NCBI GenBank assembly: GCA_965223505.1
Contig: CBDCWP010000011.1
Location: 39,077 to 103,076, forward strand
Origin: Planctomycetota bacterium
GTDB lineage: Bacteria > Planctomycetota > PLA2 > JAEUHO01
Reading direction: 5' to 3'
Length of the DNA stretch: 64,000 nt
Shown here: positions 51,890 through 58,217 of the stretch, one piece after another
How the letters are laid out: every line of letters starts with the position of its first letter
Position numbering within the stretch: the stretch's first letter is position 1
Notes under the pieces: generated by a model
The model's input: only the letters and a program-made list of their open reading frames with translations
Told to the model about the DNA's origin: nothing
The model's database searches: none
Program-made: the position numbers and the translations under genes

Positions 51890-51967
51890 TGGTCGGGGCG
51901 ACTGGACTCGAACCAGCGACCTCCTGAACCCCATTCAGGCGCGCTACCAAATCTGCGCCACGCCCCG
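51890..51967 (-). tRNA. tRNA-Pro (anticodon GGG)
   Basis: CGGGGCG acceptor stem, CCTGA-ATGGGGT-TCAGG anticodon arm, GGTTCGAGTCC T-arm, encoded CCA. Confidence 0.97.
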
Positions 51968-53976: not shown

Positions 53977-54257
53977 ACGCCCTCCCGTTCAACGCCGTAC
54001 GGTAGCTTGCGCGCGCGCCCCGAGGGAAGCGCGCCGGTCGTTGTCAAGTGTGAATCACCCTCGAACGACGCACGTTGGTTCGTTCTTCGTGACGCGGCTT
54101 GCCGGCGCGTGTCGATTTGGCCGGACATGTTGCGCAATCTCGTTGCGAACACTGCGGCTCCCTCTTGATCCGCTTCGCCGGGATCGCTACGTTCGGTCCG
54201 GCGTCGCGAATTTGTGTCTGTAGCGGCGAGGACGACGCAGCCGGGAGGGGTCAACAG

Positions 54258-55640
54258 GTGGCGCGACGCATCGTGATGATCGTCGGTAGGGGCGGTGCCA
54301 CCACCAAGCGCCTCAAGGCCCACCTCACGCGCCAGGGACTACAGGTGAAAACGGTCGCGGACTGCGGCACGGCGACGGAAGCGCTGGCGGAGGCGGCCGC
54401 GCGAGCCGACGAACACGAGCCGCACCCCGTACGGGCCGTCATTCTCGACGTCGAAGGCGCCGGATTCGGCGTGCAGCACTTCCGCGAGATGCTGCAGTCG
54501 GACTACCCGGGCCTGTCGGTGCTCGAGCTGCCGCCGCAAGACGCCGGGCCCGAAGACATCGGCCTCCTCGTCGCCGCGGTCGTTCAGGGCATGCGCAATC
54601 CGGACCCCGCGCGCACCGGTCCGGACGGCGAGGACTTCGAGGGCCCGCTGCACGGGTACCACTTCGAGGATCTGAGCAGCCGCAGCGAGCGCATGCTCGC
54701 GCTCTTCAACGTCATCCCGCGCGTGGCGCAGACCGACAGCCCCGTCCTCATCGTCGGCGAGACCGGGACGGGCAAGGAGCTGGTCGCGGCGGCCATTCAC
54801 CGGCAGTCGCGCCGCCACGACGGCGAGTTCTTCACGATCAACTGCGGCGCCCTGACCGAGACCCTGCTCGAGAGCGAGCTCTTCGGGCACGAGAAGGGCT
54901 CGTTCACCGGCGCGTACCGGACGAAGAAGGGCTACTTCGAGCTGGCGAGCGGCGGCACGCTGTTCCTCGACGAGCTCGGCACCATCTCCACGGCCATGCA
55001 GGTCAAGCTGCTGCGGGTCCTGGAGCGCATGGAGGTGCGGCGCGTCGGCGGCTCGCGGCTGCAGAAGGTGGACGTGCGTATCGTCGCGGCCACGAACGCC
55101 AGCCTGGAGGACGCGGTCGCCGCCGGGACCTTCCGCGAGGACCTCTACTACCGGCTCAACGTCGTCCAGCTCAAGGTGCCCGCGCTGCGCGAGCGGCCCG
55201 AGGACGTGCCGCTGTTGGCGGAGGTGTTCCGCAAGAAGTTCACCGCCGCGCAGGGTCGGACCGACATCACCGGCCTCGACTCGGGCGCGGTGCGGCGCCT
55301 GATGGCCTACCCCTGGCCCGGCAACGTGCGCGAGCTCGAGAACGTCATCGAGCGCGCGGTGATCATGTCCCAGGGCCCGATCGTTCGGGAGACCGACCTC
55401 CCCGAGCGACTGCGCACCGTCGAGAAGCGGCGCACCACGATCCCGTCGTTCGACCTCGACGAGCCCCTGATCGAGGTCGTCCAGCGGGTGCGCGAGGCCG
55501 TCGAGAAGGAATACCTCAAGCGCGTGCTGCGCCGGTTCCGCGGCCATCTGGGCCGCGCAGCCAAACACGCCGGCGTCAACCGGCGCACGCTCTACAACAA
55601 GATGCAGGCCTTCGGGTTGAAGCGCGAGGACTTCCGCTGA
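54258..55640 (+). CDS. sigma-54 enhancer-binding protein (NtrC-like; degenerate receiver, AAA+, Fis HTH)
   Basis: GETGTGKE, ESELFGHEKGSFTGA, GTLFLDE, FREDLYYRL, WPGNVRELEN, AAKHAGVNRRTLYNKM. Confidence 0.95.
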   Translation: MARRIVMIVGRGGATTKRLKAHLTRQGLQVKTVADCGTATEALAEAAARADEHEPHPVRAVILDVEGAGFGVQHFREMLQSDYPGLSVLELPPQDAGPEDIGLLVAAVVQGMRNPDPARTGPDGEDFEGPLHGYHFEDLSSRSERMLALFNVIPRVAQTDSPVLIVGETGTGKELVAAAIHRQSRRHDGEFFTINCGALTETLLESELFGHEKGSFTGAYRTKKGYFELASGGTLFLDELGTISTAMQVKLLRVLERMEVRRVGGSRLQKVDVRIVAATNASLEDAVAAGTFREDLYYRLNVVQLKVPALRERPEDVPLLAEVFRKKFTAAQGRTDITGLDSGAVRRLMAYPWPGNVRELENVIERAVIMSQGPIVRETDLPERLRTVEKRRTTIPSFDLDEPLIEVVQRVREAVEKEYLKRVLRRFRGHLGRAAKHAGVNRRTLYNKMQAFGLKREDFR

Positions 55641-56007
55641 CCCGGAACACGGCCGCGCGACCTGTCGTCGAAACGGCGTGCCACTCGCTCGTCACGACAA
55701 GCAACGGTCTTGGACGACGTGAAGGGCGGCGGGTGTGGAAAAGCCCTTGAGAAACACGTTGCGAGCGTTGGGCAGCCCCATTCCCAAGAACTGTCCCCAG
55801 CCTTCCCAACCACTTAACCAAAAGTCCGTCAAGGGGTTGGACCGTTTCTCCACGCGCATTCCACAAATCGCATAGGGCGCATCGTTCCCAATCCAAACAA
55901 CCGCGCATTGTGCACAACGATGGCGCCTCATGGCTAGAAGGGCGTAAATCCCGCGTTAATGGCCGGGATTTCGGTCACGCACGTTTTTTTTCGAAAGTGG
56001 AACGGCT

Positions 56008-56023
56008 TGGTCCGCGCGTTGCA
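56008..56023 (+). promoter_or_regulatory. sigma-54 (-24/-12) promoter
   Basis: TGGTCCGCGCGTTGCA: GG(56009-10)-N10-GC(56021-22); T-tract upstream; adjacent bEBP gene. Confidence 0.7.
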
Positions 56024-56033
56024 TCTAGCTGCC

Positions 56034-57409
56034 TGCCCTTCGAGGGCAACGATCTTTGATAGGCAAGCGCTGACGAACGGACGAGGAAACCAGTCGCTCA
56101 CCGAGGGACTGTGGCGCCGGGCGGTAGGCCCGGGATCTGCCGCTGCGTGACGTTCAAAGCGGACCCGCCCCGCGAGGGGCGGCGCGAGACGACAGCTCGA
56201 GCGGACTGGGTGCGACAGTCGGTTGCGACTCCCGATCGTGAGGGGTAATTCCCGAGCGGGGATGTCGGCGCAGCAATGTGCCGGCGGAGGGAGACAATAT
56301 CGATCTGCTTAGCGGTGGCGGCCACTTCGGTGGACGTGTTGCATTCGAGAAGATTGGGTCGAGATGTGAAGGCAGCAATGCCGGATCGGAGGATCGCGCA
56401 GACCGCCTGTGGTCTGACCCTTTGAGTGACGCGGACGGAGCGCCGCATATTCGCAAGGTGACGAACCCCAGGAGAGTTGGTGCCCCGGAGACGGGGTGTC
56501 CCACTCGCTTGATTCCAGAGACCCTGAGACCCGGACGGACAGGGACGTCACCCCGACCAAGGGTGCGAGGGGAGGCTCTGCGATTGAAAGCATGAGCCAG
56601 ATCAAGCGGGAGCAGAACTCTGAAGGGGACAAACCTCAAGAAGGGATCGACGGCCGAGATGACCCGAGACTCGTGCTCGGTGAAACGCGGTGCTGTACGG
56701 ACTCGACGCGGGAGCAAAACCCTGAAGGCGGCCTCGGTGCCGACCTTCCTCCTTCGGGGGGAGGGTCGTGTACGCGGCAACGTCAAGAGGGTACGGCCAC
56801 CGAAAGGTGGACCGATCGCGCTCGAGGGAAACCCCTTGGAGAGTGAAGCCCATGGGCGCTCCGACACGACTTGTCGTGTCGGCAGGCGCGGTGAGTAGCC
56901 GCGAAGGGGGTAGCCAAACCCCGCACGTGGCGAGTGTCGGCGGAGGGATCCGCTGGCGTGTACGCGACTCACTGTGCTGGCATGTGCCGTAGGGTGCCCA
57001 AAGTCCACGAGAGGAAGCACCTGCCGCGGCTCGCGAAGCCGGCCCTTGTGGCCGGGGGAACGGGTGGCGGCGATGCGGGGCTTCCGCGGGGTGTCCTCTG
57101 TAGGGGGGCGTAAGCGTATGGAGGGCCTTCCACCGGCTTCGGTTGGTGGAAAGGTGACGCAGCTGTGAGCCCGAAGGGCGACGAACGTCGTACGGGCCGG
57201 ACGGAAACCAATACCCGTCCTAGGCTGCTGATCCGGTGTCCTCGAAACGCCGCGTAACTCCATGAGAGGTTGCGACCACTGCCGCAAGGCGGTGCGAACA
57301 TCTGCGGGAGTTCTCAAGACTCTGAAGGACCGGAGCGATCAGGCGCCGACTCCCTCGTCAGGCTTTCTTAGCCCGGAGCATGGGAAACCATGCTCCGGGC
57401 TTTTCTTTT
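56034..57409 (+). ncRNA. candidate giant (~1.35 kb) structured non-coding RNA
   Basis: Promoter, boxA-like leader, many tetraloop helices with G-U pairs, recurring motifs, terminator; no credible CDS. Confidence 0.7.
57370..57409 (+). terminator. intrinsic terminator
   Basis: AGCCCGGAGCATGG-GAAA-CCATGCTCCGGGCT perfect 14-bp stem running into TTTTCTTTT. Confidence 0.9.
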
Positions 57410-57643
57410 GCGCTGTGCGCGCAGCCAGGCGGAGCATGGGAAACCATGCTCCGGGCTTTTCTTTTGCGCTGTGCGCGCAGCCAGGCGGAGCATGGGAAAC
57501 CATGCTCCGGGTTGGGCAGCCACAAGGGCTGCCCCTACCAAACCAACCAGCTGTAGGGGCGACCCTCGTGGTCGCCCAATGATCCGTCTTGCCTACCGGC
57601 AGTCTGGCGGAGCACGGGAAACCACGCTCTGGGCTTTTCTTTT
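57375..57643 (+). repeat. tandem copies of the terminator hairpin (56-bp period x3 plus a diverged 4th)
   Basis: GGAGCATGGGAAACCATGCTCCGGG at 57375, 57431 and 57487; variant at 57609. Confidence 0.9.
57514..57577. repeat. inverted pair of GTAG-family REP elements (REPIN-like)
   Basis: GGGCAGCCACAAGGGCTGCCCCTAC (57514-38) and GTAGGGGCGACCCTCGTGGTCGCCC (57553-77). Confidence 0.75.
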
Positions 57644-57673
57644 CGGGAGTGTGGCTCTATTGGAACAGGGCGT

Positions 57674-57855
57674 CTAGGCTCTGTTTCGAAACTGCCGTTG
57701 CTGCGCCCGGCGATCCTCTTGCTGCGCCCCGCCCGAACTCGGAACCTCGTCCTCGACGGGCACAGAGCCCGCCTGCGGCGAGAACCGCTCGTTCAGACTC
57801 GGGCTCGCATCGGTCTCCCCGGGCTCGCGACGCGGCATTTCGAAACGGAGCCTAG
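57674..57855. mobile_element. MITE-like non-autonomous element (182 bp)
   Basis: Terminal inverted repeats CTAGGCTC(T/C)GTTTCGAAA, 17/18 identical; CTAG at both ends; no transposase. Confidence 0.7.
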
Positions 57856-58217
57856 TCGCCTCACGCGCTCCCAATGGCGGCGATCACGAAGCCGCCGACG
57901 ATGATCGGCAGCATGGCCCAGACGACACCCTCTGAGGGTATGAACGCCGCTACGACGGCCACAAGCGTCGCCAGGAGGGCCATCCGAAAGCACGCCTTCT
58001 GAGCACGGCGCGCGAAGGGCCCAGGGGTCATTTCTTGCGCTTCTTCCCGCTGCTCATGCCGTTCCCCTCATTGGCCTCGGGGTCATGCTGACCATCTCGT
58101 CGAACACCTCGATCGACACGAAGAAAAGAAGCAGATTCCAATAGAACCCTACTCCCGCTTCTCTTGCCTATCGGCAGCTTTGCGGTGTCACCCTATCTGC
58201 GTTCGAGGGCGTCCGGG

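Follow-up and report, generated by a model that had tools for sequence, protein, structure and literature searches.

The window (the whole stretch of planctomycete DNA that was analysed, 64 kb in length) encodes a large structured non-coding RNA at 56034-57410 on the forward strand. The primary transcript probably extends over approximately 56034-57410 and the mature form over approximately 56070-57363; the RNA appears to be trimmed at its closing helix to about 1.05 kb, or to about 1.29 kb in the genome from which the window was taken. The features of the locus are summarized in Table 1, in which A1 to A8 and B1 to B3 denote the copies of two motifs that had been listed in an earlier, sequence-only reading.

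Table 1. Features of the RNA gene and its surroundings. Positions refer to the window; loop nucleotides are in square brackets, and numbers attached to bases are numbers of sequences in the alignment of homologs.
Feature	Position	Strand	Description	Homologs
Enhancer-binding-protein (sigma-54) gene	54099..55640	+	directly upstream of the RNA, same strand	
Sigma-54 type -24/-12 promoter	56008..56022	+	TGGTCCGCGCGTTGC; read from sequence	conserved in alignment
5' leader	56034..56069	+	variable hairpin (56034-48), then conserved CUUUGAUAGGCAAGC stretch	hairpin covaries in alignment
Closing helix, 5' strand	56065..56076	+	AAGC-G-CUGACGA; mature 5' end maps here (RNAalifold, contig ends)	
M0, 4x4 variant	56101..56108 with 56451-56458	+	CC[GAGG]GA with UC[GCAA]GG; flanked by helices 4 and 5	G67 A65 N G48/A12 opposite G47/A18 N A52/G12 A64
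Arm 0 lineage-specific expansion	56150..56430	+	~280 nt	absent from most homologs in alignments
M1	56466..56477 with 56617..56628	+	Y strand CCCC[AGG]AGAGU (A1) with X strand ACUCU[GAA]GGGG (B1 3' half)	helices 14/15 paired 95.1%/99.1%; loop A64 N G67 opposite G67 R A64; Y1:X3 AA 64, GG 3
M9, G.G/G.G form	56522..56571	+	CCCU[GAG]ACCC ... GGGU[GCG]AGGG; hairpin enclosed, loop with GACGUC (56544-49)	helices 18/19 paired 99.6%/98.5%; Y1:X3 GG 54, GU 11, AA 2; Y3:X1 GG 66
M2	56635..56645 with 56833-56843	+	Y strand CUC[AAG]AAGGG (A2) with X strand CCCUU[GGA]GAG (A4)	helices 22/23 paired 97.0%/98.5%; loop A67 R G67 opposite G66 A59 A66
M3	56719..56730 with 56781-56792	+	X strand ACCCU[GAA]GGCG (B2 3' half) with CGUC[AAG]AGGGU (A3)	helices 27/28 paired 100%/91.4%; loop G67 A54 A67 opposite A62 N G67
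M4	56848..56859 with 56984-56995	+	Y strand GCCC[AUG]GGCGC (A5) with GUGCC[GUA]GGGU	helices 33/34 paired 99.6%/100%; Y1:X3 AA 56, GG 10, GA 1
M11	56898..56931	+	GCCGCG[AAG]GGGGU - loop - ACCCC[GCA]CGUGGC	helices 37/38 paired 98.5%/98.8%; Y3:X1 GG 63/67
M5	57003..57014 with 57319-57330	+	Y strand GUCC[ACG]AGAGG (A6) with ACUCU[GAA]GGAC (B3 3' half), ~310 nt away	helices 42/43 paired 98.9%/93.1%; loop A67 N G67 opposite G67 R A67; covariation example, columns 1164/1564: CG 43, UA 21
M6	57095..57106 with 57258-57269	+	X strand CCUCU[GUA]GGGG with CUCC[AUG]AGAGG (A8)	helices 48/49 paired 99.7%/93.6%; loop G67 N A67 opposite A66 N G67
M7	57114..57127 with 57237-57250	+	Y strand GCGU[AUG]GAGGGCC (A7) with UGUCCUC[GAA]ACGC	helices 50/51 paired 92.1%/95.1%; Y1:X3 AA 57, CA 7, GG 2
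M10	57169..57197	+	GCCCG[AAG]GGCG - loop - CGUC[GUA]CGGGC	helices 55/56 paired 98.8%/100%; Y1:X3 GG 29, AA 26, CA 12; Y3:X1 GG 65
Closing helix, 3' strand	57355..57365	+	UCGUCAG-GCUU; mature 3' end maps here (RNAalifold, contig ends)	
Intrinsic terminator	57370..57410	+	14-bp hairpin, then U run	

Transcription of the RNA is probably driven by the sigma-54 promoter under the control of the adjacent enhancer-binding protein. Regarding the genome-derived loci with upstream sequence, the strict promoter pattern was found upstream of the RNA in 15 of 25 and the relaxed pattern GG-N10-GC in 20 of 25; this element and the adjacent AAA+ activator gene together are, at the level of sequence, what would be expected of a sigma-54-type RNA gene. 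At the place of the terminator, 23 of 24 genome-derived loci have a strong hairpin, with a folding energy of -37 kcal/mol or lower, and in 20 of the 24 the T-run rule is satisfied as well. The synteny of the activator gene with the RNA is kept in 13 of 16 genome loci, and the activator gene and the convergent gpsA and plsY are the conserved neighbours of the RNA gene.

The enhancer-binding protein consists of an N-terminal domain that is modelled as flavodoxin/receiver-like, an AAA+ sigma-54 interaction domain and a Fis-type helix-turn-helix; the Pfam matches were Sigma54_activat at 194-358 (E = 3.8e-69), AAA_lid_14 and HTH_8. The model of the N-terminus (pLDDT 75) is a beta-alpha repeat, for which Foldseek returned weak flavodoxin and receiver-like matches only (E of at least 2e-3, TM of at most 0.53). 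A PDB sequence search gave no match to this domain, and no Pfam or NCBIfam model recognises it. None of the NCBIfam equivalogs matched the activator at its cut-off, RtcR reaching 301.7 bits (cut-off 650) over residues 190-500 only. An RtcR/RtcB RNA-repair locus was rejected, as the activator is below the RtcR cut-off, its N-terminal model is receiver-like and rtcB lies on another contig.

An alignment of 67 non-redundant homologs (65-70% overall identity) yielded a fold in which the 5' and 3' ends of the RNA meet in the closing helix, beyond which lies a central junction of five arms. The 330 pairs of the fold were paired in 91.3% of cells, as compared with 79.0 ± 0.2 in shuffles (0 of 500 reached the observed value) and 38-44% in slid controls, the proportion of paired cells being somewhat inflated since the fold was derived from the same alignment that was used for counting. 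Pairs changing on both sides numbered 260 (175 ± 4.7 in shuffles, 139-150 in slid controls), and the covariation score was 0.385 (0.173 in shuffles, 0.07-0.09 in slid controls). The helices flanking the modules described below were all paired to 91-100%. Covariation speaks neither for nor against the closing helix, because its bases are nearly invariant. A dinucleotide AA precedes each of arms 1-4 in 60-67 of the 67 sequences. A pseudoknot scan for extra covarying column pairs gave 9107 candidates, mostly GC-rich columns of low variance, and was uninformative.

A coding reading of the region was rejected, as 13-38 frameshifting indel events separate each of 66 homologs from the window. The minus strand carries an ORF of 386 aa without a Pfam match. 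With a length above 500 nt, no conserved ORF and a covariation-supported multi-helix fold, the RNA has the properties of a large ornate non-coding RNA. The only gathering-level match of Rfam 15, whose families include ROOL, GOLLD, OLE, HEARO, raiA, group I/II introns, RNase P, tmRNA and 6S, in the 64-kb window was one tRNA (51893-51967), and at E <= 10 the interval 55600-57900 gave sub-threshold chance matches only, mostly in the terminator repeats. A literature search on large non-coding RNAs of Planctomycetota, including sigma-54 and GOLLD/ROOL, returned no description of the RNA, and this RNA of approximately 1 kb from one Planctomycetota class is apparently undescribed so far. The covariance model R1 gave one match per genome in 34 of the 40 genomes of the order, which is the entire class in the genome collection searched; matches were present in 16 of the 17 high-quality genomes of the order. 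Metagenomes contain more than 119 matches to the RNA.

Within this fold one internal loop is used repeatedly. The sequence-only reading had quoted eleven stretches as copies of a motif A and a motif B and had proposed a repeated structural module; all 11 of the 11 are present letter for letter at the positions given, and the module is supported by conservation and by the pairing of its strands across homologs. The division into two types of motif did not hold, as motif A and the 3' half of motif B face each other as strands of a single recurrent module, pairing as A1-B1, A3-B2, A6-B3 and A2-A4, with A4 (56829-43), listed as A-type, being the X-type partner of A2. B1 and B2 are indeed identical at 19 of 21 positions. 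The GCGGGAG that forms the 5' half of motif B lies outside the module; it belongs to a 3' helix strand in B1 and to a 5' helix strand in B2, and that of B3 is not conserved in homologs. The earlier listing was incomplete, the partner strands at 56984-95, 57095-106 and 57237-50 having been overlooked and the modules 56522/56561, 56898/56918, 57169/57186 and 56101/56451 being absent from it. Modules do occupy equivalent positions in the covariation-supported fold, each arm of the central junction starting with one (a 3x3 module in four of the five, the 4x4 variant in the remaining one).

The module is a symmetric 3x3 internal loop in which a Y strand 5'-C[A-N-G]R-3' lies opposite an X strand 5'-Y[G-N-A]G-3', and the window contains ten 3x3 copies and the one 4x4 variant. 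As a rule, a helix of 4 bp adjoins the A.A end of the loop and one of 5 bp its G.G end, so that the two helices and the loop make up a strut of about one helical turn. Within the loop G lies opposite G, and A opposite A, the middle pair being free; since an A.A pair in one homolog can be a G.G pair in another, the loop pairs are homopurine pairs. The pair Y3:X1 is G.G in 59-67 of the 67 sequences in every module, and the A.A/G.G counts at Y1:X3 are, for example, 64/3 in M1, 56/10 in M4, 26/29 in M10 and 2/54 in M9 (Table 1); in one distant homolog (L221) A.A takes the place of G.G at the second pair, too. The full homopurine signature was found in 607 of 670 cells and in at least seven of the ten modules in every sequence. 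Module number and position are constant in 67 of 67 homologs. In the four homologs of family f2 and in the f27 homolog, M6, M7 and M10 were not confirmed, as the alignment is unreliable there. The homopurine 3x3 loop is a candidate new RNA motif; we know of no named motif with the A.A/G.G 3x3 signature, and a literature search for homopurine 3x3 internal loops found nothing relevant.

The frequency of the motifs relative to shuffled sequence depends on the form counted, extended forms being enriched and short cores not. In 1000 dinucleotide shuffles of the region, 'AA-N2-5-CA-N-G-R' (9 observed, 1.66 expected) and 'YYYGNAGG' (5 observed, 0.83 expected) each reached the observed number in 1 of 1000. 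The short cores within 56431-57372 were not enriched (Y core 36 versus 30.5, X core 16 versus 11.3), nor were CANGAGAG (8 versus 9.5 expected) and CTCTGRAGG (2 versus 0.98) in shuffles at the level of the window. The combination GCGGGAG-N3-12-CTGAAGG has three matches in the 5.15-Mb genome, both strands counted, and all three lie within one stretch of 720 nt at this locus. Motif frequency alone is insufficient, and conservation and pairing in homologs are decisive. As homologous loci conserve the motifs, the proposal of a repeated module survives the grounds on which the sequence-only reading would have given it up (a frequency no higher than in shuffled sequence, or no conservation). A genome scan for module-like pairs (a strand of 3 bp, A-N-G and 4 bp, its complementary G-N-A strand no more than 450 nt away) gave 6120 matches and placed the RNA locus outside the top 8 clusters; this descriptor says nothing about other RNAs, as it is too unspecific in a genome of 68% GC.

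Many metagenome homologs have the dimensions of the mature RNA. Among the 61 whole-contig homologs listed, 58 have a length of 1004-1212 nt, 38 start inside CUGACGAAYGG, downstream of the leader, and 36 end at UCGUCAGGC (model positions 1074-1084), with both the characteristic start and the characteristic end present in 26. Judged by their lengths and ends, not by sample records, these contigs of about 1050 nt are probably transcripts. A contig of 1269 nt from an RNA library falls entirely within 56061-57327, including the expansion at 56150-56430. The RNA runs derive from relatives, as only a small share of the sampled words was present in them; the runs with a high share (X21-X24) are of unrecorded kind and may include the sample that gave the assembly of the window. 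Contigs of four runs gave no cover at 55950-56053 and past approximately 57406, which carries no evidential weight. In RNA libraries from the environment, the RNA appears to form a discrete and abundant species.

Two of the 61 whole-contig homologs (L109 and L100) are permuted head to tail, the 3' end being joined to the 5' end with an exact terminal redundancy of 123 nt; back-joints numbered 0 among the 15 joints listed of 20 in the contigs of four runs. The permuted contigs suggest, as far as their sequences go, a circular form, and a fraction of the RNA may be joined head to tail; a circular molecule would have a junction of UCGUCAGGCUU followed directly by CAAGCACUGACGA. Tandem DNA copies or an effect of assembly are possible sources of the same contigs.

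The best explanation of the module, to which a probability of about 0.5 is assigned, is that of an architectural element of a large structured RNA. The stacked purine-purine core would be of constant length and would have an altered groove geometry; the module would set the distance and orientation between junctions and offer docking sites to the conserved AA linkers and to GNRA loops, and the five arms would pack into a single compact particle, possibly an oligomer, as in ROOL, GOLLD and OLE. The constant number, place and dimensions of the modules are what points to this putative role. It fits better than a sponge with variable sites, because module number and position are fixed in the 67 homologs.

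The module might instead be a reiterated protein-binding site, the RNA serving as a sigma-54-induced scaffold or sponge for about ten copies of one protein, or for a ring oligomer at the central junction, with the widened groove of the stacked purine-purine pairs as the recognition surface; this is considered less likely. Internal loops of purine-purine pairs are a classic target of proteins, as in the Rev response element and in domain IV of SRP RNA, and a symmetric purine-rich loop repeated ten times could also mark a multivalent protein-binding RNA. The ten loops are near-identical, G.G and A.A being invariant and the middle position free, the short helix and loop repeated at the arm bases (four 3x3, one 4x4) would suit a multimeric partner, and the RNA seems abundant and discrete in RNA libraries. 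However, no candidate gene for an RNA-binding protein is syntenic with the RNA, and the sites are located within helices and fixed in number and place in 67 of 67 homologs, whereas in known sponge RNAs the number of sites varies and the sites are in hairpin loops. A CsrA/RsmA sponge in particular was rejected, as the middle base is A, C, G or U, so that the GGA of a CsrA-type site is not conserved, and the motif strands are part of covarying helices, whereas sponges of this type have multiple conserved GGA motifs that are exposed in hairpin loops or single strands.

A special case of the architectural reading is that the modules mediate contacts between molecules, the homopurine loops and the palindromic GACGUC loop bridging a homo-oligomer (dimer, ring or cage). 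In size and ornateness the RNA resembles OLE, ROOL and GOLLD, which form homo-oligomers, and 52 of the 67 sequences have GACGUC in the hairpin loop enclosed by M9, the core ACGU being present in 65 of the 67. This form of self-assembly is nevertheless improbable, since the facing loop bases are already explained inside one molecule and the flanks of ACGU show no palindrome covariation (AACGUA occurs 6 times and AACGUC 3 times). The GACGUC loop as a proven dimerisation site was rejected for the same absence of palindrome covariation.

That the repeats were left behind by an internal duplication, or resemble each other by chance within a GC-rich spacer or mRNA, and play no structural part today, can practically be dismissed: the near-identity of B1 and B2, the short cores at the level of shuffles and the existence of the minus-strand ORF would suit it, but it is already contradicted by the covariation, loop-pair and indel results, given that the modules are conserved across 67 homologs with covarying partner strands and homopurine covariation, that every homolog carries its frameshifting indel events, that the ORF lacks a Pfam match and that B1 and B2 occupy non-equivalent strands.

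The observations would also allow a wider and distinctly speculative picture, namely a new class of giant RNA that is switched on by its activator, excised and partly circularised, and whose arms, built with ten novel homopurine loops, are packed into a nano-assembly like those of ROOL and GOLLD, made of RNA only or of RNA and protein. To our knowledge, bacterial non-coding RNAs of approximately 1 kb other than rRNA are very rare, and OLE, GOLLD and ROOL have each revealed unexpected biology or architecture. As the RNA is near-universal in its lineage, appears discrete and abundant, and has its own transcription activator, it is probably important under a specific condition. The tenfold reuse of one homopurine loop is a clean natural case of modular RNA construction and makes the loop a candidate new motif for RNA design, and the trimmed, occasionally head-to-tail joined ends point to a possible DNA-encoded circular RNA of bacteria.

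Recurrent internal-loop modules include the kink-turn, the sarcin-ricin/loop E motif, tandem sheared G.A pairs and the 11-nt tetraloop receptor. The planctomycete module resembles them as a short, sequence-specific non-Watson-Crick loop that lies within helices and recurs many times in a single RNA, with isosteric substitutions, and differs from them in being size-symmetric (3x3), with G facing G and A facing A, covarying A.A and G.G, and neither a 3-nt bulge nor a bulged G. The kink-turn is an asymmetric loop in which tandem sheared G.A and A.G pairs come after a bulge of 3 nt; it was rejected, as 10 of 10 loops are symmetric 3x3 loops with G opposite G and A opposite A. The sarcin-ricin/loop E motif has an AGUA strand opposite GAA and a bulged G (4x3); it was rejected, too: the X strand is often GAA, but the A-N-G of the Y strand has no fixed middle base and no extra nucleotide. 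Regarding CsrB and RsmZ, the RNA shares with them many copies of a short purine-rich motif in one non-coding RNA, whereas its motif strands pair in internal loops rather than lying in hairpin loops, and its copy number is fixed.

Qrr with LuxO is one case of a sigma-54-dependent sRNA next to its activator. For glmY, two publications describe the same arrangement beside the enhancer-binding protein QseF/GlrR (PMC6075780, PMC8745638). The planctomycete RNA is similar to glmY and Qrr in its -24/-12 promoter and in the adjoining gene for an NtrC-family activator. In contrast, glmY and Qrr are RNAs of about 100-200 nt that work through base pairing or as decoys for proteins, whereas the planctomycete RNA is highly structured and approximately 1 kb long, and its activator has a receiver-like N-terminus that is divergent according to the model. 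DucS is a bacterial non-coding RNA with linear and circular forms, as described in its report (PMC10504365), and the planctomycete RNA is like it in being a DNA-encoded bacterial non-coding RNA observed in linear and head-to-tail joined forms; unlike DucS, to which it has no sequence relation, it is far larger, and its joined form is a putative one, seen in 2 of 61 assembled contigs.

In a cryo-EM study of large bacterial RNAs, assembly is described as resting on kissing loops, A-minor contacts and an A-A helix; OLE, ROOL and GOLLD, which are Rfam families, form homo-oligomers by these contacts, the A-A helix being intermolecular, and palindrome switching is reported for OLE and GOLLD (PMC12286853). 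Like these three, the planctomycete RNA is very large and intricate, has no ORF, covaries strongly and contains conserved GNRA-type loops and junctions rich in A; it has no known function either, and it appears discrete and abundant in RNA libraries. It differs from them in that it matches no Rfam model even at E <= 10 (chance matches apart) and has one class of Planctomycetota as its host lineage, where it is chromosomal, has conserved synteny and is not phage-associated. In addition, its mature form is longer (about 1.05-1.29 kb), its ends are probably trimmed at the closing helix, with some contigs joined head to tail, it has a sigma-54 promoter and a dedicated activator gene, and it is built from one internal-loop module used ten times over.

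BLASTN against 60 related genomes found homologs of the RNA in 26, namely in 24 of the 28 from the same family and 2 of the 11 from the sister family. An IUPAC pattern of the most conserved stretch retrieved at least 119 metagenome loci and 53 genome loci; nhmmer confirmed homology for about 95 of the listed metagenome loci and for 17 genome loci, all 17 in records titled Planctomycetota or a lower planctomycete rank. Chance matches to the pattern account for the remaining 36 genome loci, most of which come from other phyla. Sequences covering 1000 or more of the 1091 model positions numbered 82; removing duplicates of loci already in the set, and collapsing pairs with 92% or higher identity over 700 nt or more, left 67 sequences (alignment A1, not to be confused with motif copy A1).

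The RNAalifold consensus, calculated on alignment columns at least half occupied, contained 330 pairs in 59 helices. Standard pairs filled 91.3% of the cells, compared with 79.0 ± 0.2% in 500 shuffles (none of which reached the observed value) and 38-44% in slid controls, the observed figure being flattered by the derivation of the consensus structure from the same alignment. Pairs changed on both sides (260, versus 175 ± 4.7 in the shuffles and 139-150 in the slid controls) were far above both kinds of control, and the covariation score was 0.385, versus 0.173 and 0.07-0.09, respectively. Columns 1164/1564 held CG in 43 and UA in 21 sequences, and columns 1285/1496 held six pair types. The helices flanking the modules were each 91-100% paired over the 67 sequences, including those with strands 125-320 nt apart. 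No convincing gene was found in 55641-57860, and a search of this region against Rfam 15 yielded nothing at the gathering threshold and chance-level matches alone at E <= 10. A coding region was rejected, with 13-38 frameshifting indel events relative to the window in each of 66 homologs and no Pfam match for the 386-aa minus-strand ORF.

The recurring motifs A and B make up a single structural module, which is conserved and belongs to a genuine large RNA. The consensus fold sets motif A against the 3' half of motif B as the two strands of a single type of internal loop; the strands are named Y (5'-C[A-N-G]R-3') and X (5'-Y[G-N-A]G-3'). In the usual module, three loop layers separate 4 bp on the A.A side from 5 bp on the G.G side. 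The stretches quoted in the sequence-only reading all lie in the window where it had placed them, and its proposal of a repeated structural module holds, except that A and B are facing strands of a single module kind and not two motifs. The module does not include the 5' half of motif B. In B1 this half lies in the 3' strand of a helix and in B2 in a 5' strand, with 6 or 7 nt of A-rich junction strand after it, and in B3 it is not conserved in the homologs.

Features of the RNA locus (window coordinates; motif labels follow the sequence-only reading)
Feature	Position	Partner strand	Label or remark
-24/-12 element	56008-22		TGGTCCGCGCGTTGC
Closing helix	56065-76 (AAGC-G-CUGACGA)	57355-65 (UCGUCAG-GCUU)	
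M0	56101-08	56451-58	4x4 variant
M1	Y 56466-77	X 56617-28	A1 with B1
M2	Y 56635-45	X 56833-43	A2 with A4
M3	Y 56781-92	X 56719-30	A3 with B2
M4	Y 56848-59	X 56984-95	A5
M5	Y 57003-14	X 57319-30	A6 with B3
M6	Y 57258-69	X 57095-106	A8
M7	Y 57114-27	X 57237-50	A7
M9	56522-32	56561-71	absent from sequence-only reading
M10	57169-80	57186-97	absent from sequence-only reading
M11	56898-911	56918-31	absent from sequence-only reading
Sigma-54 enhancer-binding protein gene	54099-55640		upstream of RNA; syntenic in 13/16 loci

The expected excess of the motifs over shuffled sequence was found in 56431-57372 for extended forms, namely 'AA-N2-5-CA-N-G-R' (9 observed versus 1.66) and 'YYYGNAGG' (5 versus 0.83), each count being reached in 1 of 1000 shuffles, but not for the short cores of the loose motif A. 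Window-wide, CANGAGAG occurred 8 times (9.5 expected) and CTCTGRAGG twice (0.98 expected); within 56431-57372 the Y core occurred 36 times (30.5 expected) and the X core 16 times (11.3 expected). All three copies of the motif B pattern GCGGGAG-N3-12-CTGAAGG in the 5.15-Mb genome (both strands) lie inside the RNA. Because the short cores are not enriched, frequency by itself is a weak argument, and the case for the motifs is carried by conservation and pairing.

Opposite the Y-strand G, a G was present in 59-67 of the 67 sequences in every module. The Y-strand A faces an A and, when altered, both sides switch jointly to G.G (AA/GG counts over 67 sequences: 64/3 in M1; 56/10 in M4, plus one GA; 26/29 in M10, plus 12 CA; 2/54 in M9). 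In the distant homolog L221, which comes from a different family of the phylum, the G.G position has become A.A in M1 and M4. The middle pair takes nearly any combination. The same purine occupied both strands at both outer positions in 607 of 670 module cells; every sequence carried this signature in at least 7 of its 10 modules, and 25 sequences in all 10. Judged by these substitutions, the loop behaves as two symmetric homopurine pairs around a free position, in which it differs from sheared G.A pairs, the kink-turn and the bulged-G motif as usually defined.

The closing helix leads to a central junction with five arms (starting at 56098, 56466, 56635, 56848 and 57003). Arms 1-4 each begin with a helix of 3-4 bp followed by a 3x3 module, and arm 0 with a 5-bp helix followed by M0; the AA ahead of each of arms 1-4 was present in 60-67 of the 67 sequences, and the remaining modules lie deeper within these arms, likewise between junctions. 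The arm 0 expansion of about 280 nt (56150-56430) is missing from most homologs; two (L004 and L063) have an expansion at the same site, and these two and L019 have a separate one of about 35 nt in arm 3. A GACGUC palindrome in the hairpin loop at 56544-56549 is present in 52 of 67 homologs (ACGU core in 65) and could be a kissing-loop dimerisation site.

Of 25 genome-derived loci with upstream sequence, 15 carry the -24/-12 element by a strict pattern and 20 by a relaxed one; a strong hairpin 3' of the closing helix was found in 23 of 24 loci, 20 of which also satisfy the T-run rule. Unlike the homologs, which have one terminator each, the window carries its terminator hairpin and U run as a tandem duplication (57374-57511; 56-nt period, 2.5 copies, 100% identical), with a fourth, diverged copy of the core (92% identical) near 57600-57640. 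Between the copies lies a 77-nt near-perfect palindromic hairpin (57509-57585), possibly a REP-like element or an insertion scar; on both strands it gave spurious microRNA matches below threshold. The annotated TTG start of the enhancer-binding protein gene at 54099 is probably about 50 codons too far upstream, since the alignment with homologs starts only at residue ~32-73. No Pfam or NCBIfam model matched the first ~190 residues of this ORF, and no PDB sequence matched the N-terminal domain (54099-54700). In a model of residues 51-200, a beta-alpha repeat spans ~58-166 (mean pLDDT 75), and the matches to receiver domains are weak. As the usual acidic pair is missing (by eye, IVMIVGRGG in place of the DD motif), the modelled domain may be a pseudo-receiver. 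The convergent gpsA and plsY genes found downstream suggest no functional link. The only Rfam gathering-level match in the window was a tRNA gene at 51893-51967 (-).

Among the matches listed, 65 metagenome loci were whole contigs, 61 of them homologs. Of these 61, 58 were 1004-1212 nt long, 38 started inside CUGACGAAYGG and 14 in the leader, and just 3 reached over 30 nt upstream of that; the 3' end lay at UCGUCAGGC in 36, and 26 combined this end with a start inside CUGACGAAYGG. From these lengths and ends we infer that the contigs represent assembled transcripts of an RNA processed to about 1050 nt. One contig of 1269 nt, from a library recorded as RNA, maps over its whole length to 56061-57327, the window-type arm 0 expansion included. 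In two metagenome contigs, L109 (1189 nt; repeat unit 1066 nt) and L100 (1181 nt; repeat unit 1058 nt), the termini share an exact 123-nt redundancy and the RNA 3' end is joined straight to the 5' end, without leader hairpin or terminator. Such redundancy is the signature of a circular path in de Bruijn assembly, which suggests that the RNA has a form without leader and terminator, either circular or concatemeric. No back-joint was seen among the 15 joints listed (20 in all) in contigs of four sequencing runs; rtcB is present in the genome, unlinked to the RNA locus. The leader stretch CUUUGAUAGGCAAGC (56050-56069), just 5' of the mature 5' end, shows about 80% conservation and may be a processing signal, as this exceeds the need of a helix strand.

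A covariance model of arm 3 (R1, 157 positions) gave exactly one match per positive genome, with matches in 34 of 40 genomes of the order (including 23 of 28 of the own family and 10 of 11 of the sister family) and in 16 of its 17 genomes with completeness of 90% or more and contamination of 5% or less. The class comprises the same genomes as the order; of the 27 with a completeness of 85% or more, 26 were positive. In an even sample of 151 phylum genomes, 9 were positive (7 belonging to this class, 2 to other families), and under stricter filters the other 142 gave no match.

Because module number, place and dimensions are fixed in all homologs, an architectural role is favoured (probability about 0.5), in which stacked purines would make the module a strut of fixed length, as well as a docking site, by means of which the five arms would pack into a compact particle. 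A reiterated protein-binding site is a possible but less probable reading, against which stands the want of a syntenic candidate protein. Oligomerisation through the module loops or the GACGUC loop has precedents in ROOL, GOLLD and OLE (PMC12286853) and is unlikely here. The flanks of the ACGU core show no covariation between palindromes among the 67 homologs. That the repeats are meaningless, or coding, is contradicted by the data and very improbable.

No description of the RNA or the motif was found in open-access literature and bioRxiv, circular bacterial RNAs included. On this ground, and for want of an Rfam 15 match, the RNA is rated a new class of large structured bacterial RNA, unusual in its modular construction, regulation and maturation.
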